Below are positions 7,774 through 33,568 of a stretch of DNA of 64,000 bases, one piece after another. Position 1 is the first letter of the stretch. Every line of letters starts with the position of its first letter. The stretch comes from Candidatus Poribacteria bacterium (GTDB taxonomy: Bacteria > Poribacteria > WGA-4E > PCPOR2b): assembly GCA_965218095.1 (NCBI GenBank), contig OZ244587.1:1760001-1824000 (forward strand), in the 5' to 3' direction. The notes below the pieces were generated by a model. That model was not told the origin of the DNA. It ran no database searches and was given only the letters and a program-made list of their open reading frames with translations. Position numbers and translations under genes: made by a program.

Positions 7774-7917
7774 AAATCTACAAAAAAAGGTAATCATCTT
7801 ATCATCTGGGGTGATGCAATCGAGGCTTTGTCCAGCAAAATTCCGGGTGCTTCAGTTGATTTAATCTTTACAGACCCTCCATACAACATCGGTAAGAACT
7901 TCAACGGCAGAAAGTAA
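7774..7917 (+). pseudogene. N-terminal remnant of a beta-class amino DNA methyltransferase (YhdJ-like)
   Basis: Translates as GNHLIIWGDAIEALSSKIPGASVDLIFTDPPYNIGKNFNGRK* (DPPY motif IV); the stop comes from the adjacent repeat element. Confidence 0.85.
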
Positions 7918-8028
7918 TTTTCAGGATTAAACTATACATTCCGTTTGTAGTAGCGCAATGAATTGCGCGTTTGGGACGGCGATGAATTGCCTCACTACAA
8001 ACCATTACTTTCTTTTTGAAAATTACTT
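7912..8028 (+). mobile_element. ~117 bp MITE-like element, shell A, with GTAG-type REP doublet cargo
   Basis: Ends aagtaattttca / tgaaaattactt; near-identical inverted copy at 26272-26388. Confidence 0.85.
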
Positions 8029-8146
8029 AAACCAAACGATACTATAACTGAAATCGTCATAACAGATGAAAAGATCAAAAGAGAATCGCCATCGAATAAA
8101 GTGAGCGTACATATTGTAAAGCTATAACTATGAGGAGGAACTCAAG

Positions 8147-8836
8147 TTGGAAAAAAAAGCTGTTGTGCTTTTGAGTGGGGGGATTGATTCAACAACGACG
8201 CTCGCGATCGCACAATCTCAAAGTTATGATGCGTATACGATGAGCTTCCGGTACGGTCAACGCCATTCCCTTGAGCTGGATCGTGCAAAGCAAATCGCCG
8301 AGAAAATGGGCGTCAAAAAGCATACTATCGTCGATATTAATCTGCGTGCATTCGGTGGGTCGGCTTTAACCGATGACATTGATGTGCCCAGAGATCGATC
8401 AGATGAGGAGATCGGAACGGGCATCCCGATTACCTACGTTCCTGCACGGAATACGATATTTCTGTCATTCGCACTCGCCTGGGCAGAAACATTAGAAATC
8501 GACACGATCTTTATGGGCGTCAACGCGCTTGACTATTCTGGGTATCCGGACTGTAGGCCGGAATATATTGAGGCTTATCAGGCGATGGCAAATCTGGCAA
8601 CGAAGGCTGGGGTTGAAGGCAAAACGAAGCTCAAGATTCAAACGCCCTTGATCTCAATGACTAAAGCGCAAATCATACAAAAAGGAACAGAACTCGGCGT
8701 TGACTACGGGCTCACCCTCAGTTGTTATGAGCCCGATGATCAAGGCAGTGCGTGTGGTACATGCGACAGTTGTCTGTTAAGAAAGAAAGGGTTTTCGGAA
8801 GCGGGTGTCGCGGATCCAACGGCGTACAGGGCTTGA
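8147..8836 (+). CDS. queC: 7-cyano-7-deazaguanine synthase
   Basis: [35 protein letters not shown]...CGTCDSC. Confidence 0.97.
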
Positions 8837-8928
8837 GGTTATACTGCACAAGCAAGCATGCTCCTGATATTATCACCTGCCATTCTGAGGATACCCGCTT
8901 TCCATTTCTCAGTTATTCAAAAACTGCT

Positions 8929-9426
8929 TCACCTGCTCATACACATCCTAGGCTTTCCCGTACGAGATAGCTGTCGCTTTTGCTGAGGCGACAAGGTGTC
9001 GAAAACGGAGCAGGGACGGGTTGTCTGAAACTCTTCAATAGTTGCCTGATGATGCTTCAGCGCATGCATCTCCGTCGCGTTATCCTGGCATACGATTTTA
9101 GCGAACATGGTGATTAAAACCCGCGGTTCGTATTCTAACTCCCCATATTTTTCCACCCGTGTGATCGCACCCTCGACGTCATTGGCAGCAATCACCTTCT
9201 GAATGGCGTCCAACAGTTGTGGCAGGGATTGTCGAGAGATCGCAGCCACGGCATCAGGACGGGGATGAGGTTCGGAAGATATGCGATCTTTCGCATTTCT
9301 GACCTCTGGTCCCGAATTCCATAGCAGGAGTGCCAGACCTAGTCCTATTTGTTGTTCTACATGCAGCGGCCAGAATGGACGCTCCCGCCTATTTTTGCTA
9401 GACTTTTGAACAAATCTTTGATACAC
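8929..9426 (-). pseudogene. Fragment of an uncharacterised protein
   Basis: Protein-like core (CQDNATEMHALKHHQATIEEF) with implausible ends. Confidence 0.4.
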
Positions 9427-9911
9427 TTAACTAACATAGCGAGGCATGGTGTACTAAATGCGTGGTGCGCTCTGGAGGCGGTCGTGCTTTGATCAGCCGA
9501 GAACGTATTGCGTACTGCATATTGTGCAGGAGGCTTCACGTTTCACGCATCACAGCTCCGTTCCGAGAGTCCGAGAATTGGACTCCGAAGGATCGGAGTA
9601 GGCTCCGCCCCGATCTATCGGGGTTTCATTTTGGGAATAAGTAGTTACTGGCTTAAATCAACCGCAGAGGCGCAGAGTTTTTTTAATTCTTCTCTGCGTT
9701 CTCCGCGTTAAATAAGCGTGTTACGACTTATGAAGAAACGAATAAATCGGAGATTTATTGTGTTTCCTCTTGCGAAATGTTAAGCCTTAATCTACTTATT
9801 GCGTTTATTTTTTCCTTTTCATGGCACGAGAAAGTCACGGCGCAGATTTCTCAAAGGTTTAGTGATAGAACACTATCCCAATTTGTCTTCCAAAATATAA
9901 GGAGGTCAGTT

Positions 9912-11765: not shown

Positions 11766-11768
11766 GAA

Positions 11769-13153: not shown

Positions 13154-13238
13154 TGCCCATGCCTGAGATCGACTATTGTCAATTGCCGCTTGCCGATTCA
13201 AGCGATAACACACCAGCAATATGAAAGGAAAATGCACG

Positions 13239-14858
13239 ATGAATGAATCTTCGAGGAGTGACTCTTCAAAGAAGGCACGCAGCAAAATCGTCATGGTCTT
13301 TAGCTGGTTGGTTATCCTTGGGATAGCGGGGGCTATCTATAAGTTCGTCATTGAACCGAGAATGAAGGGGAAGACTGTAGCTAATACTAGGACGCCCAGT
13401 CGATATACGCACGAGATCAAGATCGCCCATGACTCCTTCTCTGGTTACGCAATTCTTCGGTCCCCATCCGTTCAGAATCTGCTGGAGCGCCAAGAAATTA
13501 AGCTGACCTTCCTGGATGATAAGGCAGATTACGTTCAGAGAATGAAAAATCTACGCAGTGGCAAGATCCAAATGGCGGTCTTTACCATTGATGCTTATAT
13601 AAAGGCAGGCGATGCGATTGGGGAGTTTCCGGGTTCGATCGTGCTTGTCATTGATGAGACAAAAGGCGCGGATGCCATCGTTGCTTACAAGCAGGGCGTC
13701 CCGCAAATCCCCAAACTGAGCAACCCCGCTGCAAAGATTGTATTAACGCCGGATTCCCCCAGTGAAACCCTTGCCAGAGTTATGATAAACAAGATGAGCT
13801 TCCCCAGCCTGCCGCGAGACTGGGAATTGGAAGTAGACGGCGCCGAAGATGTGTACAAGAAGCTAAAGGCTGGGAATCCAAATGAACCGAGAGCTTATGT
13901 GCTGTGGGAGCCATTTGTTACAAAGGCATTGGCGCTCGACGGCGTTCATATCCTCCTGGACAGTTCAAAGCTCAAAGGATACATCGTCGATGTGCTGATA
14001 GCCCAGCGACAGTTTCTGACTGAGCAGCCTGAATTGGTGACGGCCGTTGTACAGGCATATCTGCGGGCGCGTTATGATTATGCCAATCAGCCGGATGGTC
14101 TGATAAACCTTGTTCTGGAGGATGCCAAAAAATACGGGGACTCGCTGAGGAGAAACGAAGCTGAAAATCTGGTCAATGGAATCGAATGGCGAAACACCAT
14201 GGAGAATTACGCCCATTTCGGCGTCATTTCCGGACAGGAAGCAAAGAATACAGATCATCTCGAAGATATGATTGCGAAAATTATCAGAGTGCTGGTTCAA
14301 ACGGGCGCCGTTGCAGGCGATCCATTAGCGGGAGATTATGGGCAAATTTTCTACGATGGCATCTTGCGATCGCTTCGCCGTGATAAGTTTCATCCAAGCG
14401 TAGCGACTTCAAGTGGCTTAGATGATATTGTTCTTGGCGATTCTACGACGACCGCGCTCCCGGAGGTGACAAGCGCCAAAGCGTTGAGCAATCTCTCGGA
14501 TTCTGAATGGAGTCGGCTCGTTCCTGTTGGCACAATGAGGTTTGACCCCATCCAATTTGGTCGGGGAAATGCCAGAATTCAGCGGAATAGTCAACGGGCG
14601 TTGGCAAGACTCGCCGAAGACCTCGACTCATTTCCGCAATGGTATCTCAAGGTCGTCGGGCATACCAGACGCGAAGGTGACCCAGAGGCAAATCGCATTC
14701 TTGCCCAGCAGCGGGCGGAGGTTGTTGCGGCGTTTCTGATGAGCAAAGGAATCAACCCCCATCGCATGAAGTTCGTTGCAAGTGACCGGCCGCCTGAAAA
14801 CGCAGTGGGGGGAAAAGCGCAAAGCGTGACTTTTGTCCTTCTGGAGAAACCGTACTGA
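13239..14858 (+). CDS. Membrane-anchored NMT1/SsuA-like substrate-binding protein fused to an OmpA-like domain
   Basis: N-terminal TM; DSFSGY, DETKGADAIV, LWEPFV; VVGHTR...ANRILAQQRAEVVAAFL..KGINPHRM. Confidence 0.85.
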   Translation: MNESSRSDSSKKARSKIVMVFSWLVILGIAGAIYKFVIEPRMKGKTVANTRTPSRYTHEIKIAHDSFSGYAILRSPSVQNLLERQEIKLTFLDDKADYVQRMKNLRSGKIQMAVFTIDAYIKAGDAIGEFPGSIVLVIDETKGADAIVAYKQGVPQIPKLSNPAAKIVLTPDSPSETLARVMINKMSFPSLPRDWELEVDGAEDVYKKLKAGNPNEPRAYVLWEPFVTKALALDGVHILLDSSKLKGYIVDVLIAQRQFLTEQPELVTAVVQAYLRARYDYANQPDGLINLVLEDAKKYGDSLRRNEAENLVNGIEWRNTMENYAHFGVISGQEAKNTDHLEDMIAKIIRVLVQTGAVAGDPLAGDYGQIFYDGILRSLRRDKFHPSVATSSGLDDIVLGDSTTTALPEVTSAKALSNLSDSEWSRLVPVGTMRFDPIQFGRGNARIQRNSQRALARLAEDLDSFPQWYLKVVGHTRREGDPEANRILAQQRAEVVAAFLMSKGINPHRMKFVASDRPPENAVGGKAQSVTFVLLEKPY

Positions 14859-14890
14859 ACCTTGCGGAGGTTTCAAACCTTCGCAGGGTT
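14858..14890. repeat. Short palindromic repeat family AACCTT-N3/4-AGGTT
   Basis: aaccttgcggaggtttcaaaccttcgcagggtt; similar copies at 37496-37529, 48902-48916 and about 50003-50017. Confidence 0.7.
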
Positions 14891-14911
14891 GAAGAGCAGG
14901 AGGCGAGGCAA

Positions 14912-15688
14912 TTGATCGACCGGAAGAAGTTAAGGAAAAAAATTCTCCTCAATCTCATAGGAAACTCCGCCGTGATCTTTCCCTTTGCCGGCGGAGCCAC
15001 CTTAGCCTTTGTAACGTGGTTTTTTAATCTTGAGCCGAGTATTCTATTTCTGTTTGTCAGCGGCGTCGTGGGGATTCTGGGCCCCGTAGGCGGGTTGATT
15101 ACGAAATGGACAACGGGCTTAGACAACATCTCAAAGCAGGCATTAAGGGAGTTGCAGGAGGAAGTTCATAAGGAACAGGAGCGTCAACTTGATGCTTTAC
15201 GCAAGCAGCTTACAGCGGATGGGGATGCCAGAACTGAAAGGATGCTTGCCGATCTTCGCACGTTGCATCAATCCTTTAAAGCAGAAGTCAATGAAAACAC
15301 ATGGTCATCATCTATCCCGTCGAATGTCGCCTTTGAGCTTGCCTACAAAGTTGAAGCCCTGTTTCATGAATCGGTAAATTGCTTAAAAGAAACCCTCACA
15401 CTTCGAGAAAAGGCGAGAAATACCGCAACGAAAACAGCAAAATCGCCTCTCTTACAACAGCGAGAACATCTGATCGCAGATGTTCAGGAAACCATCGCGC
15501 AACTCTCCAAAATCTACGGAGAGGTACTGACACTTGATACCAATAGTGATGAAACGCAGCTCTCAAGACTCAGAAATGAGCTTGATGAAAATATAGAGTT
15601 TGCCAAAAAAGTTGATCAGACAATGTGTGAGCTTGAATCACGCGATATCCATGAACCGAGTAAATATGATCAGTATATTGAAAAGTGA
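14912..15688 (+). CDS. Two-TM protein with a cytoplasmic helical/coiled-coil domain (possibly XpaC-like)
   Basis: Two hydrophobic segments, then long amphipathic helices; family call is inference. Confidence 0.7.
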   Translation: MIDRKKLRKKILLNLIGNSAVIFPFAGGATLAFVTWFFNLEPSILFLFVSGVVGILGPVGGLITKWTTGLDNISKQALRELQEEVHKEQERQLDALRKQLTADGDARTERMLADLRTLHQSFKAEVNENTWSSSIPSNVAFELAYKVEALFHESVNCLKETLTLREKARNTATKTAKSPLLQQREHLIADVQETIAQLSKIYGEVLTLDTNSDETQLSRLRNELDENIEFAKKVDQTMCELESRDIHEPSKYDQYIEK

Positions 15689-15773
15689 GCCGAGCTATTC
15701 GCTCGTTTTAAGGCATTCAGGGCGTCAAGCCAACTGAAGCATAAAATGAACCATCCCGAAGGAGGAGCATGAG

Positions 15774-16424
15774 ATGGACTGGCTACACGCAATTTACATT
15801 GGCTGCACAGTGTTTTCAGTGGGAATTACCGCGCTTGATTTCTTAGGATTTCTTGGCGGAAAGCAAGATGGCGATAGTAGTGATGGAGACGCCCACGTCG
15901 GCGAGGTTGATAGCGGCGAGATGGACCTCGGCGGCGATCATTCCGTCGAAGGCAACCATGCCGGAGAAACGGCGTCGGACGATGTTTCTCATGCCGCTGG
16001 TGGGGTTGCGGTGCTGTCCGTGCTTTCTTACTTGCGCAGCTTCATCTATTTCTGTCTCGGTTTTGGACCTACAGGTTGGGTTGCTATGGCAATGGGAAAT
16101 AGTGCAGGACAGAGCCTTATTTGGGCGGCGCCGGCTGGCGTGGTCACCTTTGTGTTAGCACGCGCGTTCTTCCGTTTCCAGCGCACCGATACGGATTCAT
16201 CCCTGCATTCAGAAGAATTGCTCTTCCAGCAAGCAACTGTAATCGTTCCACTGACACACAACACGATGGGCAAAGTACGCGTGCAAGTGGGTATGAATGT
16301 GACCGAACAATACGCGCTTGCTACCGAACCGAATGCCCAGTTTGAGAAAGGGGATACGGTTTGGGTTACCAATATCACAGATGAGTGTGTATACGTTGAG
16401 CACGAAAACATGGGAAAGGAGTAG
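15774..16424 (+). CDS. NfeD-like (YqiJ/YuaF-type) flotillin partner
   Basis: TM, then an Asp/Gly/His-rich loop, then TMs and a C-terminal OB-fold pattern (ATVIVPL...GKVRV...KGDTVWV). Confidence 0.85.
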   Translation: MDWLHAIYIGCTVFSVGITALDFLGFLGGKQDGDSSDGDAHVGEVDSGEMDLGGDHSVEGNHAGETASDDVSHAAGGVAVLSVLSYLRSFIYFCLGFGPTGWVAMAMGNSAGQSLIWAAPAGVVTFVLARAFFRFQRTDTDSSLHSEELLFQQATVIVPLTHNTMGKVRVQVGMNVTEQYALATEPNAQFEKGDTVWVTNITDECVYVEHENMGKE

Positions 16425-17912
16425 ATGAAAATGGATGCAATTACTCAGTACAGCGGGATTGTCGGTGGTGTTCTCGCAATCATCGTATTCCTCGTATTGA
16501 TTGCGATTCTACGTGCGTTTATTCGTGTCTGTCCCTCAAATCATATTCTGGTTGTCACCGGAGGAACAGAAACCGTGGTTGAAGGCAAAAAGTACGGCTT
16601 CCGTCTCCAAAAAGGCGGCTGGACTTTTGTCATCCCATTCATTCAGAGTGTCCAATTCATTGATCTCACAATCATCCCGATTAACGTACAGGTTGATAAT
16701 GTGAATTCTGCGAATGGCATCACTGTCGGATCCGACGCAACAGCGTGTGTTTGCATTGACGACATGGATGAAGTGCTGCTCTACAGTGCTGTGCAACAAC
16801 TGCTTGGCAAATCACGTGCGCAGATCCAAGAACAGATTCAGCAGACGATGATTGGCAACTTCCGCGCCACACTCAACAAAACCACACCATTGCAGGCAAT
16901 TGGGATGGTCGAGAGCGTGGAGGGCATAGATGAGCAGGAGTTGACTGAAACCACTGCCACGCTGAGTAGGCTTCCTTCAACAGAGGAAACCGTGGAAGGT
17001 GCAGGAGATGCGAGTGATCAACGTCCGAGTGAAACGCCTCAAACGATAGATGCCGAAGGCGAGCGGGCAATCTTCCGAAATCTTTTGCTTGCGGATTGTC
17101 GCGAGGACTTGAGCGCTTTTGGTATGAATGTGGTCTCTGTATCGCTCCAACGCATCTGGGATACTTCCAACTACATCGCAAATCTTGCGAACAAAACCCT
17201 TTCGCGCAAACGTCAGGAGGTGGAGATCGAGGAAGCGCGATTGCAGGCGCGTGCCGAGCGCGCGGAATCTGATTCAAAACGTCGGATGTTAGTGGCTGAA
17301 AACCGCGCGAACGAGAAAATTCTTCAAGCTCGACAAGACGTTGAACTATTTCGCCGCCAATGTGACGCAGCAATCCACCGCGCTAAACTTGAGGCCGATA
17401 GTGCCATTGTCAAGGCGCATAGTGCAGGGCAGCGGCGGGAGGAAGAGATCACAGCGGAACTTCAAAAGCTGAGGAACAGTTCTGAAGTTATTGTGGAGGC
17501 TGAAGCCAAGCGCCGTGCTGCGGAGATTCTGGCGGAGGGCGAAGCAAAAGCTGTTGAAATTGTTCAACAGACGCAGAATGAGCTCCTCCAACAGAAAGTG
17601 GATTTACTCAAGAACACCGAAGATACGGGTAAAATTGCGTTGTTCATCACGCAGTTGCCACATCTTTTTGACTCGTACCGTACACATGCGGAATCATTGA
17701 AGGTCGACAATCTGCTGGTGCTCAACGAAGAAGATGGCTTCAATAGCGCTGTCAATCGAGGCCCATCGGCATTTGTCGATTTCTTGAAATGCTTTGAGCA
17801 GGGGTTTGGTATTAGCATAAGAGATCTGATCACCCGGAGGCAAACGGAAAATTCCGTCGCAACTGAAGAGGTAGCAGCCACCGCCCAGATCCAGGAAGGA
17901 GGCGTATCATGA
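16425..17912 (+). CDS. SPFH/flotillin-family protein 1
   Basis: TM; CPSNHILVVTG...GGWTFVIPFIQ...DL; AE-rich coiled-coil tail. Confidence 0.9.
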   Translation: MKMDAITQYSGIVGGVLAIIVFLVLIAILRAFIRVCPSNHILVVTGGTETVVEGKKYGFRLQKGGWTFVIPFIQSVQFIDLTIIPINVQVDNVNSANGITVGSDATACVCIDDMDEVLLYSAVQQLLGKSRAQIQEQIQQTMIGNFRATLNKTTPLQAIGMVESVEGIDEQELTETTATLSRLPSTEETVEGAGDASDQRPSETPQTIDAEGERAIFRNLLLADCREDLSAFGMNVVSVSLQRIWDTSNYIANLANKTLSRKRQEVEIEEARLQARAERAESDSKRRMLVAENRANEKILQARQDVELFRRQCDAAIHRAKLEADSAIVKAHSAGQRREEEITAELQKLRNSSEVIVEAEAKRRAAEILAEGEAKAVEIVQQTQNELLQQKVDLLKNTEDTGKIALFITQLPHLFDSYRTHAESLKVDNLLVLNEEDGFNSAVNRGPSAFVDFLKCFEQGFGISIRDLITRRQTENSVATEEVAATAQIQEGGVS

Positions 17913-19165: not shown

Positions 19166-19310
19166 GGAACTTATCAGTTCAGCAGTTCATTGATTCATTC
19201 ACATTTTACACATCAGGTTTCACAGTTTATGTTAAGGTATAATGCAACATGGTCCATTTAACCGAGGGAGGTGCAATATTATCACGAGACTCAGTTGGGT
19301 TGTGGCTTTG

Positions 19311-19370
19311 CTGTGGGAGCGAGATCCTGCTCGCGATAGAAGAATCGAGGCAGTGATGTCTCTCCCACAG
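19311..19370. repeat. REP-like doublet (TGTGGGAGC...CTCCCACA)
   Basis: ctgtgggagcgag...tctcccacag inverted ends with internal hairpins. Confidence 0.65.
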
Positions 19371-19424
19371 CATTATGCACTACCCTCATTTAACCCCATG
19401 ATTACTTGAAAGGAGAAAGACAAA

Positions 19425-20252: not shown

Positions 20253-20393
20253 TTTGGTGGGTGGTGAGTGAGTGGACGTGAAAGTGAATCTGATTTTCAA
20301 CAGAATCGCCCATCACCATCCACCACCTCAAACGCAAAGCATTTATCGAAAAGATAATTCATGTCTATAGTTCTATTGGAGAGGAGAATCGCA

Positions 20394-22272: not shown

Positions 22273-22343
22273 TAGTAAATAAGTTCATTGGTTCAGGAGT
22301 ACAGAAGTTCATTCACGCCTTACGTTTCGCTATGCTTTACCCC

Positions 22344-23293
22344 TAATAGACGATTACAAGATGTCGGATAAACTTAGTCATCATCAGGGAATCACGGGGG
22401 TTGGCTTTGTGCAAAAGCAGATGGGATAAGGCTTTGAACCGGTTGTCGGCATCGAAAATCTCAGATGGATTGGACAGTTGGGCCGAAAAGCGGTATGCTC
22501 CCTGGGATTGATAACTCAAAAATTGAGACAGAGGAGAATACCAATGAATTGTGAGTATCATAACCTACCGCCCACCTTTCAGCAAGAGTTTTTCGATCTG
22601 CTTGATGAAGTTCAAACCCAAGGCATAGAGCCCGTAGTGTTAGAAGCATTGTTAATTGCCCCATTGGTCAGTGACCACATCGCCGAAGTGGAAACCGTTG
22701 CCGTCCAACGACTAGATACGTTGCGTGAGGCGTTGAGAACAAATGCCATCCCAATAATGAGACTATTGAGTCGGCTCTCTTTCTTGCTCTTTTTGGAATA
22801 CCTCACTCGATTTTTTTCGCAAAACAACCCTGGCAGAAAACGCGATGGCGAATTGTCCTTTGTGGGGATGATTCACTTTTGGTCCATGCCGAAGAGAGCC
22901 ATCAACCCGATGTGGTCAACATTTGGAGTACCCTTTATAAGACCTACCGCAAGGCACATGATCTCATTGTTTTGGGAATCACCATCGGTTCCAAGACAGG
23001 AGCGTTCTTCTTTCCACTTTGGGTGGAATTGTGGCGTCAACCGAGCCAAAGAAAACAGCCCCGTCCCCAACGAATGGCGGCTGCGCTATTGCGGCTGAAC
23101 CAACAGGTTAAAGATACCGGGTTGAGCTTAGAAGGCATTGATTTTGCCACCGACAATGGATACCTCTCGCCAACTGTTGCTAAAGCGGTTGACGCATCTG
23201 GTTTGATTTTGACGACCCGGTTCAGATCCAATCAACCGGTGACACCCCTTGATGGTGAATCCATCGTGATTCGGGATTTGTAATCGTCTACTA
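22344..23293 (+). mobile_element. Degenerate, truncated IS of IS4/IS701-like DDE type
   Basis: TIRs TAATAGACGATTACAA / TTGTAATCGTCTACTA; frameshifted transposase pieces with GDDSLL and FATDNGY motifs. Confidence 0.75.
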
Positions 23294-23310
23294 CTAAGAA
23301 AAGGCAAATT

Positions 23311-24237
23311 ATGGAAACTGTACTTGAATGCAAGGGGGTTACCCATTATTTTGGTGAAAATCGGGTGCTTCATGACATCAACCTTCAAGTGGTTAGAGGG
23401 GAGATCGTCTCATTAGTTGGACCGAGCGGCTGTGGGAAATCCACTTTGCTTCGAGCAATCTTAGGAACCCATCCGCCACATAAAGGCGAAATATTGGTCA
23501 GTGGGAGGTCCGTCAAAGGTGCCGGAAGGGACAGGGGAATTGTTTACCAGCGTTATTCACTCTTTCCATTTCTGACAGCGCAGAGAAATGTGACACTGGG
23601 ATTGCTTTTTGATCAGAATTCACTTTTTGACAGGTTTGTTAAGTATTTTGTCTGGAGGAAAGAGAAAAAAAGACACCTTGACGAAGCTACGGCGCTGCTT
23701 CAAAAATTAGGACTTGGTGATGCACTGAACCTTTATCCATATCAGATGTCAGGAGGGATGTGCCAGCGGGTTGCAATCGCCCAGGCCGTTATCATGAAAC
23801 CCCAGATTCTCCTTCTGGATGAACCTTTTGGTGCCCTTGATGAGGCAACTCGCGAGGAACTTCAGAAAATGCTGCTGACTTTCTATGCAGAGAACCTTGC
23901 GGCGATGAATAATGGAGAGCAACCCCCGTATACGATCATTATTGTCACCCATGAACTTAATGAAGCCATCTACGTTGCAGATCGAGTGGTTGCGCTTTCG
24001 CAGTATTGGAACTGGCGAGAAAAGGAATTTGAAAACTTCCCCGGTGCCACAATCGTGTATGACCAAATGGCGCCTGCTTTTGCGCCGACTGATGAGATCA
24101 ATTACGTACAGTTTCTTGAACAACGGACAGAGATCCGGACAGCGGCATTTGATCCGAATTATCGCCAGGAACGGGATGACTTCAATAAATTCTGGGGACA
24201 GGTACATGAAAATGAAGAGGAGGTGTTTGAGCGATAG
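23311..24237 (+). CDS. ABC ATP-binding protein (SsuB/NrtD-like)
   Basis: GPSGCGKS, YQRYSLFP, MSGGMCQR, LLLDEPFGALD, VTH. Confidence 0.95.
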   Translation: METVLECKGVTHYFGENRVLHDINLQVVRGEIVSLVGPSGCGKSTLLRAILGTHPPHKGEILVSGRSVKGAGRDRGIVYQRYSLFPFLTAQRNVTLGLLFDQNSLFDRFVKYFVWRKEKKRHLDEATALLQKLGLGDALNLYPYQMSGGMCQRVAIAQAVIMKPQILLLDEPFGALDEATREELQKMLLTFYAENLAAMNNGEQPPYTIIIVTHELNEAIYVADRVVALSQYWNWREKEFENFPGATIVYDQMAPAFAPTDEINYVQFLEQRTEIRTAAFDPNYRQERDDFNKFWGQVHENEEEVFER

Positions 24238-26054
24238 CTGTCAAAAGTCCGAAGTATGAATTTCTGTCTCAAGCGGGAACGATAATAAACGCAGGGACCT
24301 CGAAAAGCATCATCCTTGCAGGAAATATTCATGACCTTTTCTTTTTTGATGATGGAGGGGGAAATGAGGGTTATGTGCCACTCGTTTCACTCCTGACGCG
24401 CACCTGGGATGTGCCCGGGTTTATCCTGATGGTTTATGAACTGAACGGTCCCATCAGATTTTTGGGAGCGAGCGACAAGGAAAAGCTGAGAAAGACGTTC
24501 AGTTTATGGAGACAAGATACCGATCAAAACCTGCTCTCCAAAGACACCATTCGTTATCTCATTCCGGGGAGGGGAACAAAATCTGCAGAAGAGCAATTCG
24601 ACACATATCTGAGGAACTCTATTGGAAACCCAACTGTTGCCCTTGAATTGCTCAGGCAACTATGTCTGCTTTCCCGAGGAACTGATGAGTTTGGCACAAA
24701 ATTGTTGAAAGAAAAGTTGTTGATTATTGTTGAGGCGGCTGATATGTTAATGCCGGAGGGAGAAATCCCGAGACTCTCCCAGGCGGATCGGCATAGGGTA
24801 GGCATTGCGCACGATTGGATTCTTGATCCGGATTTCATGAGTGGGAAAGATGTTGTCATCTTTATCACAGAATCCAAAAGTTTGATGAACTCAAGAATCA
24901 CGAGGCTTCCTCAAGTAGCAACCGTTGAAATTCCGTCGCCCGGTGTAGATGAGAGAAAACATTTTATTTCCCGGTTTAATAGAACCCAAAAACCCAAAGG
25001 GAAGGGGTTGCGTCTCTGGGGTACACAGGAGCAAGTCGCCATGCTGACAGCGGGGCTTTCTATCCATGCGTTGCGACAACTCCTCATCACGGCTTGTTAT
25101 TCCGGGGAAAAACTCCAGCCCCAAGATGTGATTCAGAAAGTTGGCGATTTTATTCAAGGACAAATGGGCGAAGATGTTGTTGAATTTAAGAAACCGGCTC
25201 ACGGCTTGAAAGACGTGGTCGGAAATCAACGATTGGTTGCTTTCATTCAGACTAGGCTTCTGCCGCGTCTCACCTCAACCGGTCCGGATGCAATTGCCGG
25301 TGCTGCGGTTGGTGGTCCCATTGGGAGTGGAAAGACATTCATCTTTGAGGGGCTGGCCGGGGATCTGGACATTCCCGTTTTGGTCCTCAAAAACATCAGA
25401 AGCATGTGGTTTGGCCAAACAGACGTGATCTTTGAACGCCTCAGGCGTCTACTCGCGGCACTCGTTAAAGTAATGATCTTTGTTGACGAGGCGGATACCC
25501 AATTCAGTGAAATCGGCAGAGATGCTCACGCCACTGAGCGCCGGTTAACAGGAAAGATACAGGCAATGATGTCAGATCCGCAGCTCAGGGGCAATATTAC
25601 GTGGTTACTGATGACCGCCCGAATCTACAATTTGTCGCCCGATCTCCGACGGGAGGGAAGGGTCGGTGATATGGTCATACCGGTTCTTGATCCCAACGGT
25701 GAAGATCGGAAAGCGTTTGTTAAATGGGCAATTCGTGACGTTTTTAACGGCTCCGCCAGCGATGCGGTTATTGAAAAAATGTCGCAAATCACGGAGGGAT
25801 ATTCTGCGGCAAGTTTTGCCTCACTTCGCTCTGACTTGCGTGCAGAAGGCGTCCCCTTATCAATCGAGCAAATTCTTGAAATCGCTTCTGACCGGATTCT
25901 CCCGGACATTGGTCCTGTTAGAAGATATCAAACGCTGCAAGCATTAATAAACTGCACACGGAAATCGTTACTTCCAGAAGACTATTCTCACCAAATGCGG
26001 GCTGAATGGATGGCGGAAGTCAGAAGGCTTGAACAGATGGGGGTCGGGCGTTAA
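24234..26054 (+). CDS. AAA+ ATPase with a degenerate N-terminal and an intact C-terminal AAA module; start uncertain (ATA 24234 or GTG 24375)
   Basis: Walker A GPIGSGKT, pore loop SMWFGQT, Walker B IFVDEAD, SRH-like LSPDLRREGR; frame is open from 24231. Confidence 0.88.
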   Translation: MAVKSPKYEFLSQAGTIINAGTSKSIILAGNIHDLFFFDDGGGNEGYVPLVSLLTRTWDVPGFILMVYELNGPIRFLGASDKEKLRKTFSLWRQDTDQNLLSKDTIRYLIPGRGTKSAEEQFDTYLRNSIGNPTVALELLRQLCLLSRGTDEFGTKLLKEKLLIIVEAADMLMPEGEIPRLSQADRHRVGIAHDWILDPDFMSGKDVVIFITESKSLMNSRITRLPQVATVEIPSPGVDERKHFISRFNRTQKPKGKGLRLWGTQEQVAMLTAGLSIHALRQLLITACYSGEKLQPQDVIQKVGDFIQGQMGEDVVEFKKPAHGLKDVVGNQRLVAFIQTRLLPRLTSTGPDAIAGAAVGGPIGSGKTFIFEGLAGDLDIPVLVLKNIRSMWFGQTDVIFERLRRLLAALVKVMIFVDEADTQFSEIGRDAHATERRLTGKIQAMMSDPQLRGNITWLLMTARIYNLSPDLRREGRVGDMVIPVLDPNGEDRKAFVKWAIRDVFNGSASDAVIEKMSQITEGYSAASFASLRSDLRAEGVPLSIEQILEIASDRILPDIGPVRRYQTLQALINCTRKSLLPEDYSHQMRAEWMAEVRRLEQMGVGR

Positions 26055-26271
26055 TATCAGTAACTCGCCTGACAAACCTTGCAAGCAGTGATTAACATGC
26101 CTATTTTATTGAACTGCCGAACTTTCATCTTTCACTTCCCCAACTCTCGATTCCGATAGAGAAGTGAATCTACCTGCTCAAACATCTCCCCACATTTGAT
26201 GAGATTCCCCAAGCGTTCTCCGAAGGTTATCTCTAAGAGTTGGACTGGTATCTAATATCAATTCTCAGTTT

Positions 26272-26388
26272 AATTAATTTTCAAAAAGAAAGTAATGGTT
26301 TGTAGTGAGGCGATTCATTACTGTCCCAAACGCGCAATGAATTGCGCTACTACAAACGGAATGTATAGTTTAATCCTGAAAATTACTT
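26272..26388 (-). mobile_element. MITE-like element, shell A (inverted copy of 7912-8028)
   Basis: Reverse complement matches 7912-8028 with few mismatches. Confidence 0.85.
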
Positions 26389-26413
26389 AAACCCGAAACG
26401 GTATTATTCCATA

Positions 26414-26683
26414 TCAAGCAGTCGCAATCTTATTGATCTCAAGCGCAAGGCGGGCCTTCGTCCGATTTGCCATGTCTTTTTTGATAACGCCCTTCCCTAC
26501 AGCTCGGTCAAGTTGGCTGGCAGCTTGGCGATACAATTCCTGCGCCTGTTGCGCATCCCCATCTGCAATTGCTGATTCGGTTTGCTTCAACATCGTTCTC
26601 AGCGCGGACTTCCGCTGAGAGTTCCGATCTCGCTTCTTTTTATCAGCGCGGACATGCTTCATCCCAGACTTTCTAGTGGGCAA
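26414..26683 (-). CDS. rpsT: 30S ribosomal protein S20
   Basis: RNSQRKSALRT...LDRAVGKGVIKK...ANRTKARL; RBS ggaggtg. Confidence 0.95.
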   Translation of the reverse strand: MPTRKSGMKHVRADKKKRDRNSQRKSALRTMLKQTESAIADGDAQQAQELYRQAASQLDRAVGKGVIKKDMANRTKARLALEINKIATA

Positions 26684-26702
26684 TTCAACTCACCTCCATT
26701 CG

Positions 26703-26999
26703 TTATTGATTTTTTTTATTCGGATGTTGTTCATTCCAAAGTTTTTCATAACCCTCTACTAACTCGTTGAGTCTCTCCAATATCTCTGTCCAGAGCACCA
26801 TCAATGGTTTATTTAAGTCATTGAGCCAAAACTGCTTTGCGAGTCCGTGTGCAGCAACGGCTATAGAAACAGCACCAGAACTACAGAATGGCTCAATAAG
26901 ACAACGCACAGCACTTGGGAAATGCGGAAGAATATATCGCGCAATCCCTCGCTTACTCCCCTGATATGGAAATGGGTGTGGGATATTCAACGTTTTCAT
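26703..26999 (-). pseudogene. Truncated Dam-like (alpha-class) adenine methyltransferase
   Basis: PFPYQGSKR, IEPFCSSGAVS, LNDLN motifs; ends at 98 aa, before the DPPY motif. Confidence 0.85.
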
Positions 27000-27029
27000 G
27001 GGAGTTCGGTCGTTGTAACTTCGCCAGTA

Positions 27030-27629
27030 TTATTTCGTCTTTTCCCGACCTGCCTCGCGCAAGTTTGATGCAAGCGCTTCAAGTTGGCTCCCGACTTTTT
27101 TGATATCAACATCTATGCCTTGATGGATTAGTTGATAGCAAAGGTCTTCCCAATTTTTGCATAGATCCCATGCTAACCGGCATATTTCGAGTCGGATATC
27201 AAATTCCAAAGGAAGTAACAATGTTTGGATTTTATCAAATCGGACACCTGCTGAAACGCTAAGGGCATCCCTGATTGAATCGTTCTGTTTAGAAACCCTA
27301 TTGACGACATTTTTACATTCATCCAGCGTCAGTTTTTCCTCTATAATGGCAAGGGCTAACAACCATTGGTCGTCTTTATTCTTAAGGCGGGATATTTCAT
27401 AGCCTTGCGTAATTCCAATTTGCCCTTGATCGATTTTCCATTGAATACCTTTCGGGAGTTGGAAGATGCGATTTCTTGAATTCAAGAAATTGGGAGACAC
27501 ATTCAATTGCTGTGCAATTGCTTTATAGGAATGATATTTTTGATACAAAACATCAACAGCTTTCCCAATTTCAGATGGTTTTTTCCCTTCAGGGGCAGTT
27601 AGATACTCTATTGCAGCCTTCTCCTCCAT
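27030..27629 (-). CDS. ParB/KorB-type HTH protein lacking the N-terminal ParB domain
   Basis: SYKAIAQQLNVSPNFL HTH; LPKGIQWKIDQGQIGITQGYEISRL resembles the ParB central domain. Confidence 0.65.
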   Translation of the reverse strand: MEEKAAIEYLTAPEGKKPSEIGKAVDVLYQKYHSYKAIAQQLNVSPNFLNSRNRIFQLPKGIQWKIDQGQIGITQGYEISRLKNKDDQWLLALAIIEEKLTLDECKNVVNRVSKQNDSIRDALSVSAGVRFDKIQTLLLPLEFDIRLEICRLAWDLCKNWEDLCYQLIHQGIDVDIKKVGSQLEALASNLREAGREKTK

Positions 27630-28486
27630 TACCTTGCCCCCCTCTTGAGAACGTCCGTTACCATATGACTAATAATTGTAGATTCATCTTCCAAACCTCG
27701 TGATCGGCCCCATTGCAATAACTCATCATGCAAGTCACTAGGAATTGCATATTGCACAACGTGACTCGATTCGCTAACCTTTTCCGTTACATACGCAGTC
27801 AAGTCTGCAATAGAGGCTTTGTGCTTTAACTGTTCTAAAGCCTTAACTGCATGTTCCCGACTGTCTCTGTCCAGATCAAGAATCCATGAGGCTCGCTCTC
27901 TCATCGCCTCCTGTGAGTGTTCAAAACGTGAGGCATCGAAGGTGTTTAGCACAATTGCGCTCGCATTTGCTGTAGTGAGGATTCCCTTATCTACCATTTG
28001 CTTCAGGTCTTCGGGCAATACAGATAACCTAAAATATCTCATAACTGTTTGGAGCGTTACACCAAGATACTTAGCTGCAAGTTCGAGCGCCTCTTGTCCC
28101 GTATATCCTTCGCCGCTATACCGCTTGTATATTCTCTCTGTCCAGTACGCCCGGTCACTATATGTCAGATCTCCCCGCACCTCGTTTTCAAGCCATGAAC
28201 GCTGAATGGCTTCGTCGTCATTCAATTCGAGTATAAAAGCGGGAATTTCTTCCAGTCCGATTGCTAAACACGCCTTTAGCCTGCATTGCCCGGTAACATG
28301 CTGATAATCGTATGCGGATGCAGGATCGGGATGTGGTCGAACGATAATGGGCTAATCTGGCCAATAACCGTGTTGCTGAATAGAGGCTTTGACTTCCTCA
28401 ACATTCTGTTCTACGCCTTGTCTACGAACATTGATTTCACTATCAGGATCAATAAGGTTAACTTTGAGATTCTGAACTAGACTCAT
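27629..28486 (-). pseudogene. ParB/Spo0J-family protein with an in-frame TAG at 28352-28354
   Basis: MSLVQNLKVNLIDPD...INVRR...SIQQHGYWPD*PIIVRP...VTGQCRLKAC...WLENEVRGDL is one continuous frame. Confidence 0.85.
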
Positions 28487-28533
28487 TTTTACTTCCCCTT
28501 TTCATGTAGGATGTTGCGCAGTTATCCGTTGCT

Positions 28534-28621
28534 TCCTAACGACCAAAGTTCAGTTGCGGCGAGAGGTTACAAGACAACCGACCGACCGCCTAAACCCGTC
28601 ATCTGTCAATTGATATTATAA
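28534..28621 (-). other. Integron attC-like site
   Basis: Ends in GTTAGGA on the minus strand; 27 nt identical to the right arm of the attC at 36177-36203. Confidence 0.65.
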
Positions 28622-29178
28622 AACGAAAATCCCCAGAATTCACAAGAAATAAGGGAGAAAAACTTTTTATTACTCAGGTAACTCATGAGTAAGTTTCGAC
28701 GTTTTCGAGGGGTTTTTGCCGTCTTCGGTGTAAGCGCCTCTCCTTCCCCTTCTTCGTCTGATGTTTTTGTTTCATCTTCGATACCTGACGGCGCCTCTTC
28801 AGTTTCACGTCCTTCCGGGTCAGCTTGAGAGGGCAACTTGTCGGATTCAGCCATATCCGCCTGATTGATGTCCGAAAAGTCCCCGTTATCTTCAGCCGGG
28901 TCATCAGCGTCCAAATTCAGTTCGTCTGCGTCATCAGTATCTGACTGCTTTGATTCAAAGACCTGTTTCAATCGCTCGGCTTCGGTTGACAATCTGCAGG
29001 GAACACCTTGAATTCCCGATTGCTTGACCGCTGTATCTTCCTCAAGGTTTTCTTTCCCTCCATCCGCGGACATTACCGCCACATCTTCTACTTCTTCCTG
29101 TTCAATCTCTGATATTGATATGGCTGTTTCATAGATAGTTTCAACTTGTTTGGTGATACCTTCAAGTGAATCACTCAT
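28606..29178 (-). CDS. Acidic low-complexity hypothetical protein
   Basis: 190 aa, D/E-rich; RBS ggagg upstream. Confidence 0.6.
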   Translation of the reverse strand: MSDSLEGITKQVETIYETAISISEIEQEEVEDVAVMSADGGKENLEEDTAVKQSGIQGVPCRLSTEAERLKQVFESKQSDTDDADELNLDADDPAEDNGDFSDINQADMAESDKLPSQADPEGRETEEAPSGIEDETKTSDEEGEGEALTPKTAKTPRKRRNLLMSYLSNKKFFSLISCEFWGFSFYNIN

Positions 29179-29326
29179 TGTACGCCTCCATATAATCCGC
29201 AGGCGAGTTTAAATGATAGCATAATCCGCCCCTTTTGTCCAAACCTTTTGGTCAGCTTGACACGAAAAATGATCAGTTCGTTCCCGGGTATAAGTGCCAG
29301 CTTACATGTAGTTTCTCCTGGAACGA

Positions 29327-29984
29327 TTACAATTTGTCCAATCCATCGAAAGCCGCAACCTTATATGCCTCAGTCATGGTCGGATAGTTGAAGACCGTAT
29401 TGACAAAGTAATCGATCTGGACCTCGTATGCCATGACAGCCTGGCCAATATGGATAATCTCGGCTGCACGTTCACCGATGGCGTGGATGCCCAGCAGTTT
29501 TAGCGACTCCCGGTGGAAAAGCAGTTTGAGCATACCGTTTGGATCGCCGAGGATCTGTCCCTTGGCGAGTTCTCCGTAGCGGGCAATGCGGAACTCATAG
29601 GGCGCCTTCACCTGGGTTAGGTTCTCCCCGGTTTCTCCCACCATGGAAATCTCTGGAATCGATGAAAACCTGGGTTACCGCCTCTCCCAGGCGGAGGATT
29701 ATATTTTGGTTGCGCATATGATAGATCAGCGTATCGATAATCTCTGATCGGCATGTTCAAGGATCCTATCGCGCTGATCTACCAGGGCTACTTCGACGCC
29801 TAGCGTCGCGAAGATCGAGCTATACTCACAGCCAATGACTCCAGCCCCGACGACCACCATCGTTCGCGGGATGGTAGGCAGACAGAGAACCTCATCGCTA
29901 TCGATAATCTGCTCCGGCGTGAAGGGAATATAGTCAGGCCGGGCCGGCTCGGTGCCTACCGCTATGATGAACTTTTTCCCAATT
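29327..29984 (-). pseudogene. sthA: Soluble pyridine nucleotide transhydrogenase remnant
   Basis: [38 protein letters not shown]; N-terminus lost, frameshift and internal deletion. Confidence 0.85.
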
Positions 29985-30049
29985 GTGAGCAAGGCTGATA
30001 ATTGCATAAATTTCGTAGCCACTTTGAATTTTCCGTCGTTAGATTGACG

Positions 30050-30284
30050 AAATTTCCGTATGGGACTCAGTTTGCAGCGTGCGCTCAGCGTTGTCGAGTG
30101 TATCTTTAATTCCGATGAATTGCCCAATTTTGCGTATAAAACGACACTCCAGCAGGAACTGAGCGCGAATGGGTGGAGTAAGGTCGAGCTCAAGGGGGCC
30201 TCTAAACTCAGTCACCGGGTTGAGTTCAAATTTCGTCTGAGGGACATCAATGCATTCGAGACTTCAATTGCTGACATAAAATGA
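30050..30284 (+). pseudogene. zorB: ZorB-like OmpA/MotB C-terminal fragment
   Basis: LSLQRALSVV...LSANGWS...SHRVEFKFRLRD, directly upstream of an EH-signature gene. Confidence 0.7.
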
Positions 30285-30299
30285 TGAAGGAGCTGAGAA

Positions 30300-31262
30300 A
30301 TGATTCAACCCCAGGAACTGCCGAAATACGCCCCATACTTTGGCAGCCCGAAAGCCTTGCGACGCCAAAATCAACAACTGACAACGCTGTTTTCAGCAGG
30401 CGCAATGTCGCCCGTTGATGCGGCGGAAGTTTTAGACCGTTTCTGGCAGATATACGATTCTGCCGTTGAGCCGATGAACAGCGAGTTAAAGCGGACCGAG
30501 ATTGGCAAGCTTACCTGGTGTTTTGCATTAGAGCAGAATGGCAGGCGAATTATCGATGATGTGAATGTAACTTTCTTCCTGCTCGCATTGATTCAACAAA
30601 GATACCATCATTCCTATCTGCACGGACTGAGGTATTCCTTTTTTCATGGGTATAAACCGGGAAGTACAGCCTTTAAAATATTCAGAGCTGCCCTGCGTCA
30701 AATGCTGGCAAAACTCGATTGGTCAAAGCTCCATAATCAGCAGTGGAGATTCCTTTCGGATATTTTGCCGACGAAGTCGCATCTTGTCCTTGCACGATGG
30801 GTAATCGTTGATGACATACCTTTCTTCTTCGACCAGATTGCCTTCGACCAGATTGCCGCGAATCAGGAATGGAAAACATTTTGGCTCGAATATCTGGATA
30901 GCGTCGGAAATGGAACGAATGAGCGAGCCAAGCGGTTGCCGGGTCAGGGACGTTATGCAGAATTGACCGACGGGAATGCCAGGCAAAACGCGCTTATCCT
31001 CAAGATTGAGGAACTCGTGATTGTCGAGTTCAGTGGTGGGCAAAACCTTCGTTATGTCTATGATGAACGATTCATCCCATTTGCACTGAACGCTCCATCC
31101 TATCAAATGTCGGAACTTTGCCACCCGGGCGCGCTCTTCAAACAACATCTGAAAAAAGGTTGGCAAGCAGAATTCGCCGTGATGCTTCACGATCACTTCG
31201 GCATTTACCGTCATCAATTGCGTCGTCACCAAGCCACGCAGCAGCACCATCAGCAAGTATGA
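30300..31262 (+). CDS. zorC: EH-signature domain protein (ZorC-like), probably degenerate
   Basis: FWLEYLD...ALILKIEELVIVEFSG...YVY...WQAEF; 15-nt tandem duplication at 30827-30856. Confidence 0.72.
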   Translation: MIQPQELPKYAPYFGSPKALRRQNQQLTTLFSAGAMSPVDAAEVLDRFWQIYDSAVEPMNSELKRTEIGKLTWCFALEQNGRRIIDDVNVTFFLLALIQQRYHHSYLHGLRYSFFHGYKPGSTAFKIFRAALRQMLAKLDWSKLHNQQWRFLSDILPTKSHLVLARWVIVDDIPFFFDQIAFDQIAANQEWKTFWLEYLDSVGNGTNERAKRLPGQGRYAELTDGNARQNALILKIEELVIVEFSGGQNLRYVYDERFIPFALNAPSYQMSELCHPGALFKQHLKKGWQAEFAVMLHDHFGIYRHQLRRHQATQQHHQQV

Positions 31263-31647
31263 CGTATCCGTCCCACCGAAGCCAATCTTGGGCACGCGAT
31301 TGTCACGTTATAACTGCTGCCCTCCCCCTGAAACAGTCGCATTTTTTCCTTGTTTGCGATTCATTCTGGCACAAAAGGTTAGTACCCCGAGTTGCTGCCT
31401 ATTCAATTCAATGACAGAAAAGCACCCTTTCGGAGTGCGAGAACTTTGTTTTCGCAGCAAAAACAGAGTTTTTGCAAATAGCAGTCTCATTGAAAAGTTT
31501 GGTTGAAAAGACCGAAACTGTCAGCAAGGTAGCAACTTCGGTTATTATACGCATTCAAAAGACGGTGTCAACTGAAACGTTCGATCGGGTGTGGAATTTG
31601 TCAGTATCACCTCGGCGCCTTCGGGATGACTTTTCCCATTGTCTCTT

Positions 31648-32391
31648 TTAACCGGGCTCGTCGCTAGTATGCCAACAGAATGTTGATAAAATGGCATTCA
31701 TGACGCTTTGGGTATCGCTCAGATTGTCAAAGAGGGCATCTGGTTGATACTTCTCCAGTTCTTCACGAGAATATCGACCGGTGGCCACAGCGATGACGTA
31801 AGCCCCGGCGTGACGAGCGCACTTGATGTCGCGGGGCGTGTCGCCAATAATCACGATGTCTTTGCCGCTGAACCTTTCACCCGTTTGCTCAAAAGCGCGA
31901 CGCACAGCGATATCCGGCAAGGCATTCCGGGAGCGTGCGTCATCGCCAAATGCACCCAACTGGAAAAAGGGATTCAACCGAAAAAAGTCCAACTTCGCAG
32001 CGGCGCCTCCCTTATTATTGCCGGTTAAGAGTCCGAGCAGGCACGCCTTGTAGTTCGCTACCGCTGAAATCAGTTCTTGCGCGCCATCCAACAGCTTAAC
32101 ATTCGCTCCCTTTTGGCAAGCCGCCGTCAGGATATCCGCAATACGGTCAAAAATTGAGGGCAGCAGTCGGTGGATGGCGTTTTCAGAGAGAACGCCATCC
32201 AGAATTTCATGCACGATCTGCGTGTCCGTTTTTCCCGACATCCGAACCTGACGAAATTCACCGGGCGAATTCTCCCCGAACACTTCCATTTGACGGCAGA
32301 CCTCTTCAATCGCCTGATAGGTGGCTTCCCGTCCAGTTTCGCCTGCGTTCAATATGGTTCCATCGATATCAAATAAAACGAGTTTTCTCAT
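31648..32391 (-). CDS. HAD-family hydrolase
   Basis: LFDIDGT, LLTGN, IGDTPRDI. Confidence 0.92.
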   Translation of the reverse strand: MRKLVLFDIDGTILNAGETGREATYQAIEEVCRQMEVFGENSPGEFRQVRMSGKTDTQIVHEILDGVLSENAIHRLLPSIFDRIADILTAACQKGANVKLLDGAQELISAVANYKACLLGLLTGNNKGGAAAKLDFFRLNPFFQLGAFGDDARSRNALPDIAVRRAFEQTGERFSGKDIVIIGDTPRDIKCARHAGAYVIAVATGRYSREELEKYQPDALFDNLSDTQSVMNAILSTFCWHTSDEPG

Positions 32392-32436
32392 CGTAGATTC
32401 TTTGTGTTTGTCCTTGCCCTACACCTATACGCATCT

Positions 32437-32580
32437 AAGCAAGTTTCAGGATTAAATTTGTCATTCTGAAATAGAGGCTTTGCGAAGAATCTCATCAACG
32501 ACCCACGGTCAGAGATTTTTTGGTCGCTTAGCTTCCCTCAAGATGACAGAAGATGATAGTTTGTTTTTGAAAATTACGTT
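32437..32580 (+). mobile_element. MITE-like element, shell A, with GTCATTCTGA-type REP cargo
   Basis: Ends aagcaagtttcaggattaaa ... tttttgaaaattacgtt match the ends of 7912-8028; the interior is a different palindrome. Confidence 0.7.
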
Positions 32581-32593
32581 AAGCAATGAACCA

Positions 32594-33442: not shown

Positions 33443-33568
33443 AGTTTCCCCTTTCTAACATTGAGAACTTTCTGAGAAACCCCAGATCGTAGTGCATGAT
33501 GGCCTGTTCCTAAAGTCTTGTTCTCTTTATCGTTGGGCGGGATGTCCCTTGATTTGAGAACTTTTCAA

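Follow-up and report, generated by a model that had tools for sequence, protein, structure and literature searches.

We analyzed a 64,000-nt stretch of a Candidatus Poribacteria genome (contig OZ244587.1, positions 1,760,001 to 1,824,000; hereafter the window), in which three short intergenic repeats carry the same ends. According to our in silico analysis, this repeat, which we call Shell-A, is probably a family of miniature transposable elements with inverted repeats (MITEs) of the IS630/Tc1-mariner type, and its main subfamily, type A, encloses a REPIN, that is, two inverted repetitive extragenic palindromes (REPs) separated by a spacer. The genome to which the window belongs (G000) is a single contig of 6.35 Mb with 50% G+C. 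Below, G-numbers designate genomes and L-numbers loci in the sets compared, and positions are those of the window unless they are called genome positions.

An earlier note on this DNA, made from the sequence alone, proposed that the three copies share their terminal arms. Our results confirmed this: a left-arm 20-mer (at most 3 mismatches) matches the window three times (7912, 26369 on the minus strand, and 32437), against 0.00 matches in 100 dinucleotide shuffles, and a right-arm 14-mer (at most 1 mismatch) also gives 3 matches where shuffles predict 0.03. The similarity of the copy at 32437, which might have been a chance product of the base composition, thus exceeds what shuffled sequence yields, and its left arm is identical at 18 of 20 positions. 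Copies 1 and 2 are one element of 119-121 nt in inverse orientation, 94% complementary across 121 nt. The GTAG-type REP doublet described in them is real, with the GTAG heads of copy 1 at 7947 and 7998. Copy 3 lies between two minus-strand open reading frames (ORFs). No Rfam family was matched at any of the three copies. The refined coordinates, which leave out the flanking TA, are given in Table 1.

Anatomy and copy number of Shell-A

In the whole genome, the element is laid out as TA, AGTAATTTTCA ... TGAAAATTACT, TA, with terminal inverted repeats (TIRs) of 11-12 nt, perfectly complementary in most copies, inside arms conserved over about 31 nt. Base composition predicts 0.75 occurrences of the terminal 12-mer AAGTAATTTTCA, and 38 exact ones are present; the 21-mer arms (at most 4 mismatches) give 64 match rows, against 0 in 2 Mb of shuffled sequence. 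We assembled these arms into 18 paired elements of 115-247 nt, all non-coding, and about 14 solo arms, so that the arms are not mostly unpaired, as the earlier note had allowed they might be. The solo arms are truncated Shell-A copies, several of which adjoin other insertion sequences (ISs).

Shell-A copies are found in both orientations, and the flanks of the 18 elements are mutually unrelated apart from other repeats; the copies are therefore not segmental duplications. Among the 14 elements with both ends intact, the flanks are TA/TA in 11, CA/TA in 2 and TG/TG in 1. Folded as single-stranded DNA (ssDNA), type A forms one long imperfect hairpin that pairs TIR with TIR and REP with REP (copy 1, -20.8 kcal/mol, z -4.78, unequalled in 200 shuffles; copy 2, z -3.20).

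The arms match the ends of IS630-family elements

A degenerate search for the left end in a species-level genome collection returned 44 loci, of which 27 come from 13 Poribacteria metagenome-assembled genomes (MAGs) and the other 17 are single matches in unrelated taxa. The interiors that this end bounds in the Poribacteria loci are many and varied. The search pattern did not demand TA, and TA stands directly after the partner end in 12 of the 14 paired elements of other Poribacteria records. Within the window genome itself, the arms bound REP-free elements at genome positions 1792437, 3598554 and 428441. Arms and cargo are thus independent of each other, both in this genome and across the MAGs.

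Three complete ISs with these ends were examined in relatives (L038, L080, and L084; Table 1), and TA flanks all three on both sides. In the L038 element, the second ORF scores 74.6 bits with Pfam DDE_3, where the cut-off is 28.6, and the first matches the helix-turn-helix (HTH) families HTH_29, HTH_23, and HTH_32. We assign the three to the IS630 family from their sequence features (HTH plus DDE_3, 1.1-1.4 kb, TA flanks). Members of this family duplicate a TA target. The ends of the three ISs are identical to those of the shell at 10 of the 11 terminal bases, with further subterminal likeness. The ends also differ between genomes in a concerted manner: the IS of G006 ends in ACTAATTTTCA and the REPIN-carrying MITE of the same genome has ACTAATTTTC at both ends, while the window genome has AGTAATTTTCA at both ends. 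Both ends change together, tracking the resident IS, as recognition by a transposase predicts. These autonomous elements in relatives support the earlier view of the shell as a TIR-bounded MITE of the DDE-transposase type.

A sister MITE family of 137 nt, found at genome positions 6,223,276-6,223,412 and 2,936,685-2,936,821, has ends AGCAAATTTCAGTATTAAAG... and TA flanks, and is a member of the Shell-A superfamily with another interior.

Table 1. Shell-A copies and nearby features in the window, Shell-A types in the window genome, and matching insertion sequences in relatives
Feature	Sequence	Position or number	Strand	Description
Shell-A copy 1, type A	Window	7913..8027	+	MITE with REPIN cargo; TA at 8028-8029; left flank non-TA
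Left arm of copy 1	Window	7913..7943	+	31 nt; 11-nt TIR AGTAATTTTCA plus subterminal part
REPIN cargo of copy 1	Window	7947..7998	+	Two inverted GTAG-headed REP hairpins; 52 nt head-to-head
Right arm of copy 1	Window	8004..8027	+	Terminates in TIR TGAAAATTACT
Shell-A copy 2, type A	Window	26273..26387	-	TA at 26271-26272 and 26388-26389; one TIR base mutated (ATTAATTTTCA)
Shell-A copy 3, type B	Window	32438..32579	+	REP-free interior; TA at 32436-32437 and 32580-32581
IS4/IS5-type element	Window	6900-7636	-	DUF4096 and DDE_Tnp_1 ORFs in two frames
Intron_gpII match	Window	7684-7773	+	Group II intron domains V/VI; Rfam, 59.5 bits (gathering score 40)
Methylase fragment	Window	7750-7917	+	55 N-terminal codons, DPPY-motif DNA methylase; weak N6_N4_Mtase match
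Palindrome CCTTGCGAAGGTTTGGAACCTTCGCAAGG	Window	14855-14891 and 37495-37531		Near-perfect; 57 genome copies at 4 mismatches or fewer
Palindrome GTCATTCTGAGG...GGATGAC	Window	44427-44456 and about 52245-52310		25 matches for half motif
Type A	Genome	10 elements		117 nt between outer As
Type A2	Genome	3 elements		Type A plus 32 nt within second REP
Type A3	Genome	1 element		203 nt; further nested hairpins
Type A with nested repeat	Genome	1 element		Another repeat of roughly 90 nt nested in left arm
Type B	Genome	2 elements		One is copy 3 of the window
Type B with insert	Genome	1 element		Carries 120-nt insert
Insertion sequence	L038	1803-3132		1330 nt; TA both sides; HTH ORF and DDE_3 ORF
Insertion sequence	L080	720-2107		TA both sides
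Insertion sequence	L084 (genome G006)	1400-2640		1241 nt; TA both sides; HTH ORF and DDE ORF

The REPIN cargo has a distribution of its own

A generic scan for GTAG plus a hairpin was unspecific (589 matches against 969 in the reversed control), and a strict pattern was used instead. It detects 78 REPs in the window genome against 3 in reversed-sequence controls, and their stem variants are compensatory. Shell arms adjoin 18 of the 78 REPs; the other 60 lie elsewhere. The strict inverted doublets number 13, including the one of copy 1, and 6 of them adjoin shell arms.

The whole element was used as a query against the window genome and 40 relatives, and matched 35 of these 41 genomes (34 of the 40 relatives). 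Among the matches listed, beyond which there are 346 weaker ones, full-length matches occur only in G000, G005, and G006, and outside these three genomes nearly all span no more than the REPIN core (about 26-109 or about 28-92 of the query). In relatives, another conserved motif (...AGGAGTTACGCA...) borders the REPIN, often together with a further REP. The shell is distributed otherwise: a shell 13-mer occurs 31 times in the window genome, against 0-2 times in each of 60 other genomes of the order (reversed control 0-2). Judged by these distributions, the GTAG REPIN is an older repeat family, independent of the shell. The earlier proposal that the doublet is a separate repeat family inside the shell is supported, most matching relatives showing the REPIN core without the arms.

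The REPIN inside the shell differs from REPINs outside shells in its spacer and in the variant of its second REP, and the arm/REPIN junctions are identical in all 10 full type-A copies. Per-site divergence between copies is 3.0% in the arms and 7.9% in the cargo (9 copies, 36 pairs). The simplest reading is that one shell captured one REPIN and that the chimera was then amplified via its transposon ends.

Candidate REP transposases

REP-associated tyrosine transposase (RAYT) genes are typically single-copy and flanked by their cognate REPs. The earlier note associated the REPs with such enzymes, a link that is weak in this genome. Four Y1_Tnp matches were detected, one of them IS200-like at 73.4 bits (cut-off 55). 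Another is RAYT-like (genome positions 3,422,219-3,422,785; L003 1276-2040) and has REP_Tyr_transpos as its sole match, at 68.9 bits, below the NCBIfam cut-off of 80. This gene stands directly beside a cas1-like ORF (L003 339-1427), the latter identified by eye. No strict REP was found within 2.5 kb of any of the four Y1 genes. At E of 1e-10 or lower, the RAYT-like gene has matches in 13 of the 41 genomes, its own included; it is present as a single copy with 77-94% identity in 10 of the 40 other genomes, against the 34 of 40 that match the element, mostly through the REPIN core. Three further RAYT-like matches are weaker (26-38% identity) and are likely other Y1 genes. Owing to the score below cut-off, the lack of flanking REPs and the patchy occurrence of the gene relative to the element, a REP-RAYT link is not established here.

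Type-B interior and other palindromic modules

The interior of copy 3 opens with GTCATTCTGA, closes with GATGAC and is unrelated to the REPIN. The earlier note had described it as an unrelated palindrome; its ends and its unrelatedness stand, but the palindrome is weak, since the ssDNA fold of copy 3 is no more stable than that of its shuffles (z -0.05, equalled in 94 of 200). The left half of this interior belongs to a separate dispersed GTCAT...ATGAC palindrome family with 25 genome matches, 3 in shells and 22 outside. Where arm ends and cargo begins is uncertain in type B, because the ...TTCTGA of its interior is also found in the arms of further superfamily members.

Other combinations of arms and palindromes were also observed. 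The type-B copy at genome position 3033653 carries a separate insert of 120 nt with a different REPIN and with CTAAG on both sides. A shell with a GTCAT...ATGAC interior is found in G005 (L114), and a solo Shell-A arm at genome position 5967110 abuts a member (CCTTGCGAAGG) of the 57-copy palindrome family that is represented twice in the window (Table 1). The GTCATTCTGAGG...GGATGAC palindromes of the window, which are members of a family, are embedded in a larger conserved repeat beginning ATACTGCCCACCGCCAGAAACTGCGC.

Genomic surroundings and spread

The left side of copy 1 adjoins a truncated methylase gene, which is cut exactly at the MITE and has a full paralogue near genome position 3,918,400. 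The paralogue can be aligned up to ...AGAAAG, and the junction overlaps the first bases of copy 1 by microhomology. We also considered, and rejected, an insertion of copy 1 into a methylase gene that is otherwise whole: just the first 55 codons are present, and the DNA downstream is unrelated. As the homology to the paralogue overlaps the start of the element and covers these 55 codons only, the left edge of copy 1 is a rearrangement junction and not an insertion site. The start of the truncated ORF is overlapped by the Intron_gpII match, just downstream of the IS4/IS5-type element; this match looks like the 3' end of an intron stranded amid mobile DNA. The end of the IS4/IS5-type element has about 160 BLAST matches in the genome, and it may be the most abundant IS there.

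Elsewhere, at genome positions 2,274,643-2,275,760, an IS of 1111 nt (about 40 copies, ends GAGGGGTGTGCATA, 8-bp duplication) is inserted in the terminal AAGTAATT of a Shell-A copy and has duplicated AAGTAATT. Another TA-flanked MITE-like family, with ends ACCTTTGGTGCTAGTT ... AACTAGCACCATTGGT, is found from genome position 3,718,748 onward and at six other sites; where it meets a Shell-A copy, one TA separates the two.

Type-A copies in G005 (L016, on G005:C147), which belongs to another genus, are 92-97% identical to those of the window genome (compared with genome positions 434,941-441,277), against about 72-77% for the neighbouring genes, and the ACT variants of G006 and G005 share 98% identity. 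These sequence comparisons suggest a recent spread between lineages; mis-binning in fragmented MAGs (5-7% contamination) would be an alternative.

Origin of Shell-A

We put the probability that Shell-A is an IS630/Tc1-mariner-type MITE family, with a type-A interior that is a REPIN captured once and amplified passively, at about three in four. The superfamily, with its members in 13 Poribacteria MAGs, would then be derived from, or mobilised by, ISs of the IS630/Tc1-mariner type. A DDE transposase (HTH plus DDE_3) would bind the 11-12-bp TIRs and the arms of roughly 31 nt, excise the element and paste it into a TA dinucleotide, which would be duplicated on insertion. The interior would be free to vary. 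In the 119-nt type A, a GTAG REPIN of two inverted REP hairpins would have found its way into a single shell on one occasion, through insertion or as filler DNA in gap repair, and passive copying with the MITE would have followed about 20 times. The type-B copy of the window keeps a different, REP-free interior. Mobilisation would occur in trans, the window genome being without a remaining cognate transposase gene.

Several observations weigh against this scenario. The window genome yielded 0 candidates for an L038-type transposase, and tblastn with the L038 ORFs gave no match at E of 1 or lower. Paired Shell-A ends up to 2.5-3.5 kb apart correspond to MITEs and chance pairs only, and hence to no longer element. 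A resident IS630-family DDE_3 element (7 copies) was tried as the autonomous partner and rejected, its ends being unrelated. Likeness between the L038 IS and the shell is weak at the right end, where about 14 of 22 positions agree with the right arm by eye. The TA flanks are formally indistinguishable from an inverted repeat that is 2 nt longer, since TA is self-complementary; the TG/TG element lies next to another IS and is confounded, and copy 1 has no TA on its left side, which the rearrangement junction accounts for. BLAST with the flanks of the 18 elements gave no contiguous paralogous empty site. Finally, the arm/REPIN junctions in the REPIN-carrying shells of G006 and G005 are unlike those of type A, and the idea of one capture is limited to the type-A lineage for this reason.

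The 1111-nt IS was likewise rejected as an autonomous partner, its ends being unrelated. As no cognate transposase was found in the window genome, the Shell-A copies are orphans there; the autonomous IS with these ends that the earlier note looked for exists as IS630-family copies in relatives and not in this genome. Empty sites were sought in other material as well. At the G005 locus syntenic with genome position 440 kb, none was seen, and the DNA upstream of the element could not be aligned. Among 29 genomes of the family, a 1.5-kb stretch around a related MITE (L041) had one partial match and no empty site. Over positions 14000-33999, the contigs of 4 public runs end inside repeats, and no joint in them skips an element. 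A separate metagenome scan for the exact end found at least 120 loci; of the 120 screened, none has the partner end, and their arm similarity is at chance level.

The passive amplification of a single captured REPIN has to be weighed against the possibility that REP-like palindromes actively target the interior of the shell time and again, for example by HUH/RAYT insertion into its hairpin-prone middle, with shells as favoured insertion sites and a product that DDE and HUH enzymes could both mobilise. This would explain the variety of palindromic modules in or next to the arms (the GTAG REPIN; GTCAT...ATGAC in type B, at 428441 and in L114; CCTTGCGAAGG at 5967110), the CTAAG-bounded REPIN insert at 3033653, the extra nested hairpins of 32, 15, and 25 nt in the cargo of types A2 and A3, and the different junctions in G006 and G005. 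The identical junctions of the ten type-A copies, however, trace most in-shell REPINs to one event, and with the type-A founder and 3033653 the genome shows about two independent entries of a REP into a shell, too few for a test. Most REPs lie away from shells, no Y1 gene has a REP within 2.5 kb, and part of the type-B "cargo" may itself be arm, given the ...TTCTGA shared with superfamily arms. We regard repeated targeting as unlikely. The earlier note left open whether REPs ride in a MITE shell or specifically target it: the identical junctions and the distinct in-shell variant speak for riding, and the second option finds too few independent events. The two-tier element of the earlier note is thus correct in its anatomy and probably correct for riding, with targeting unproven. 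We hold it equally doubtful that palindromic modules such as the GTAG REPIN and GTCAT...ATGAC, among others, are systematically recruited into Poribacteria IS630-type MITEs, giving chimeras open to both DDE and HUH enzymes.

A reading of the 119-nt unit in its entirety as an extended REPIN, mobilised by a tyrosine (HUH) transposase and with the arms as an outer hairpin, is in our view still less probable. The single long hairpin of type A and the presence of four Y1_Tnp matches, one of them RAYT-like, would agree with such an element. Yet these arms also enclose multi-copy elements free of REPs and match IS630-family ends, REPINs occur without arms elsewhere in the genome and in most relatives, and the RAYT-like gene scores below cut-off and has no flanking REPs. 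The TA flanks, moreover, fit a DDE element; IS200/IS605-type elements are not known to make a target duplication. That the repeats are not mobile at all, but a conserved regulatory or structural motif (a terminator or a protein-binding site) or a segmental duplication, is very improbable: the intergenic position of all three window copies and the strong type-A hairpin would fit a motif, but the flanks are unrelated, both orientations occur, the ends match transposase-bearing ISs, and the type-A copies of G005 and of the window genome are more alike than the genes beside them.

Relation to known repeats

Correia/NEMIS elements of Neisseria are IS630/Tc1-mariner-derived MITEs. Shell-A is similar to such MITEs in being short and non-coding (about 115-150 nt), with TIRs, TA flanks, tens of intergenic copies, size variants due to internal indels, and no transposase of its own. 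It differs from the Correia/NEMIS type in that its ends match a Poribacteria-specific IS630 lineage (L038, L080, and L084), the interior of its main subfamily is a complete REPIN, and the cognate IS is missing from the genome. Type II MITEs have their ends, though not their core, in common with an IS, and the Shell-A arms likewise bound unrelated interiors, within the genome and across the 13 MAGs; unlike in type II MITEs, two of these interiors themselves belong to independent dispersed families of palindromic repeats. NEMIS are counted among MITEs by Di Nocera et al. (2013; PMC3733652).

The cargo corresponds to the REPINs of the REPIN/RAYT system of Bertels and Rainey (2011; PMC3116915), with two inverted REPs and a spacer, and is widespread among relatives. 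Its GTAG heads, short GC-rich hairpins and compensatory stem variants are those of the GTAG REPs of Di Nocera et al. (2013), who also report GTAG REPs in the PVC group. Unlike in REPIN/RAYT systems, the type-A doublet is bounded by DDE-type inverted repeats and TA and was apparently amplified as that unit, and the sole RAYT-like gene of the window genome is below cut-off and lacks flanking REPs.

Unions of REPs with other motifs have precedents. The bacterial interspersed mosaic elements (BIMEs) of Escherichia coli are mosaics of REPs with other conserved motifs. In these and in the Pseudomonas "double inverted repeats", which Di Nocera et al. (2013) describe as degenerate GTAG units in fixed association with unrelated stem-loops, REPs are fixed to non-REP motifs and repeated as a unit, as in Shell-A; the Pseudomonas unions are the nearest precedent that we found. 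Shell-A differs from both in that its non-REP part can be recognised as the end of a transposon, flanked by TA, for which an IS relative can be identified. Searches of open-access full text turned up neither this element nor any MITEs or REPs described from Poribacteria, and no REPIN inside a MITE. We consider Shell-A type A, which joins two ordinary kinds of repeat in one chimera, to be modestly novel.

Biological significance

Small bacterial repeats fall mainly into two classes, MITEs and REPINs, which are usually regarded as distinct systems, each with its own enzymes. A REPIN that is fixed in a DDE-type MITE and multiplied with it would mean that a REPIN family can expand without a transposase of its own, and the REPIN could possibly cross lineages together with the MITE. 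Should systematic recruitment, doubtful as it is, turn out to be true, REPINs, thought to be inherited vertically only, would gain a horizontal vehicle. For the Poribacteria, our results document in 13 MAGs a MITE/IS630 superfamily with highly modular interiors. Repeats of the Shell-A kind break short-read assemblies of these sponge symbionts and mark rearrangement junctions, as does copy 1 beside the truncated methylase gene.

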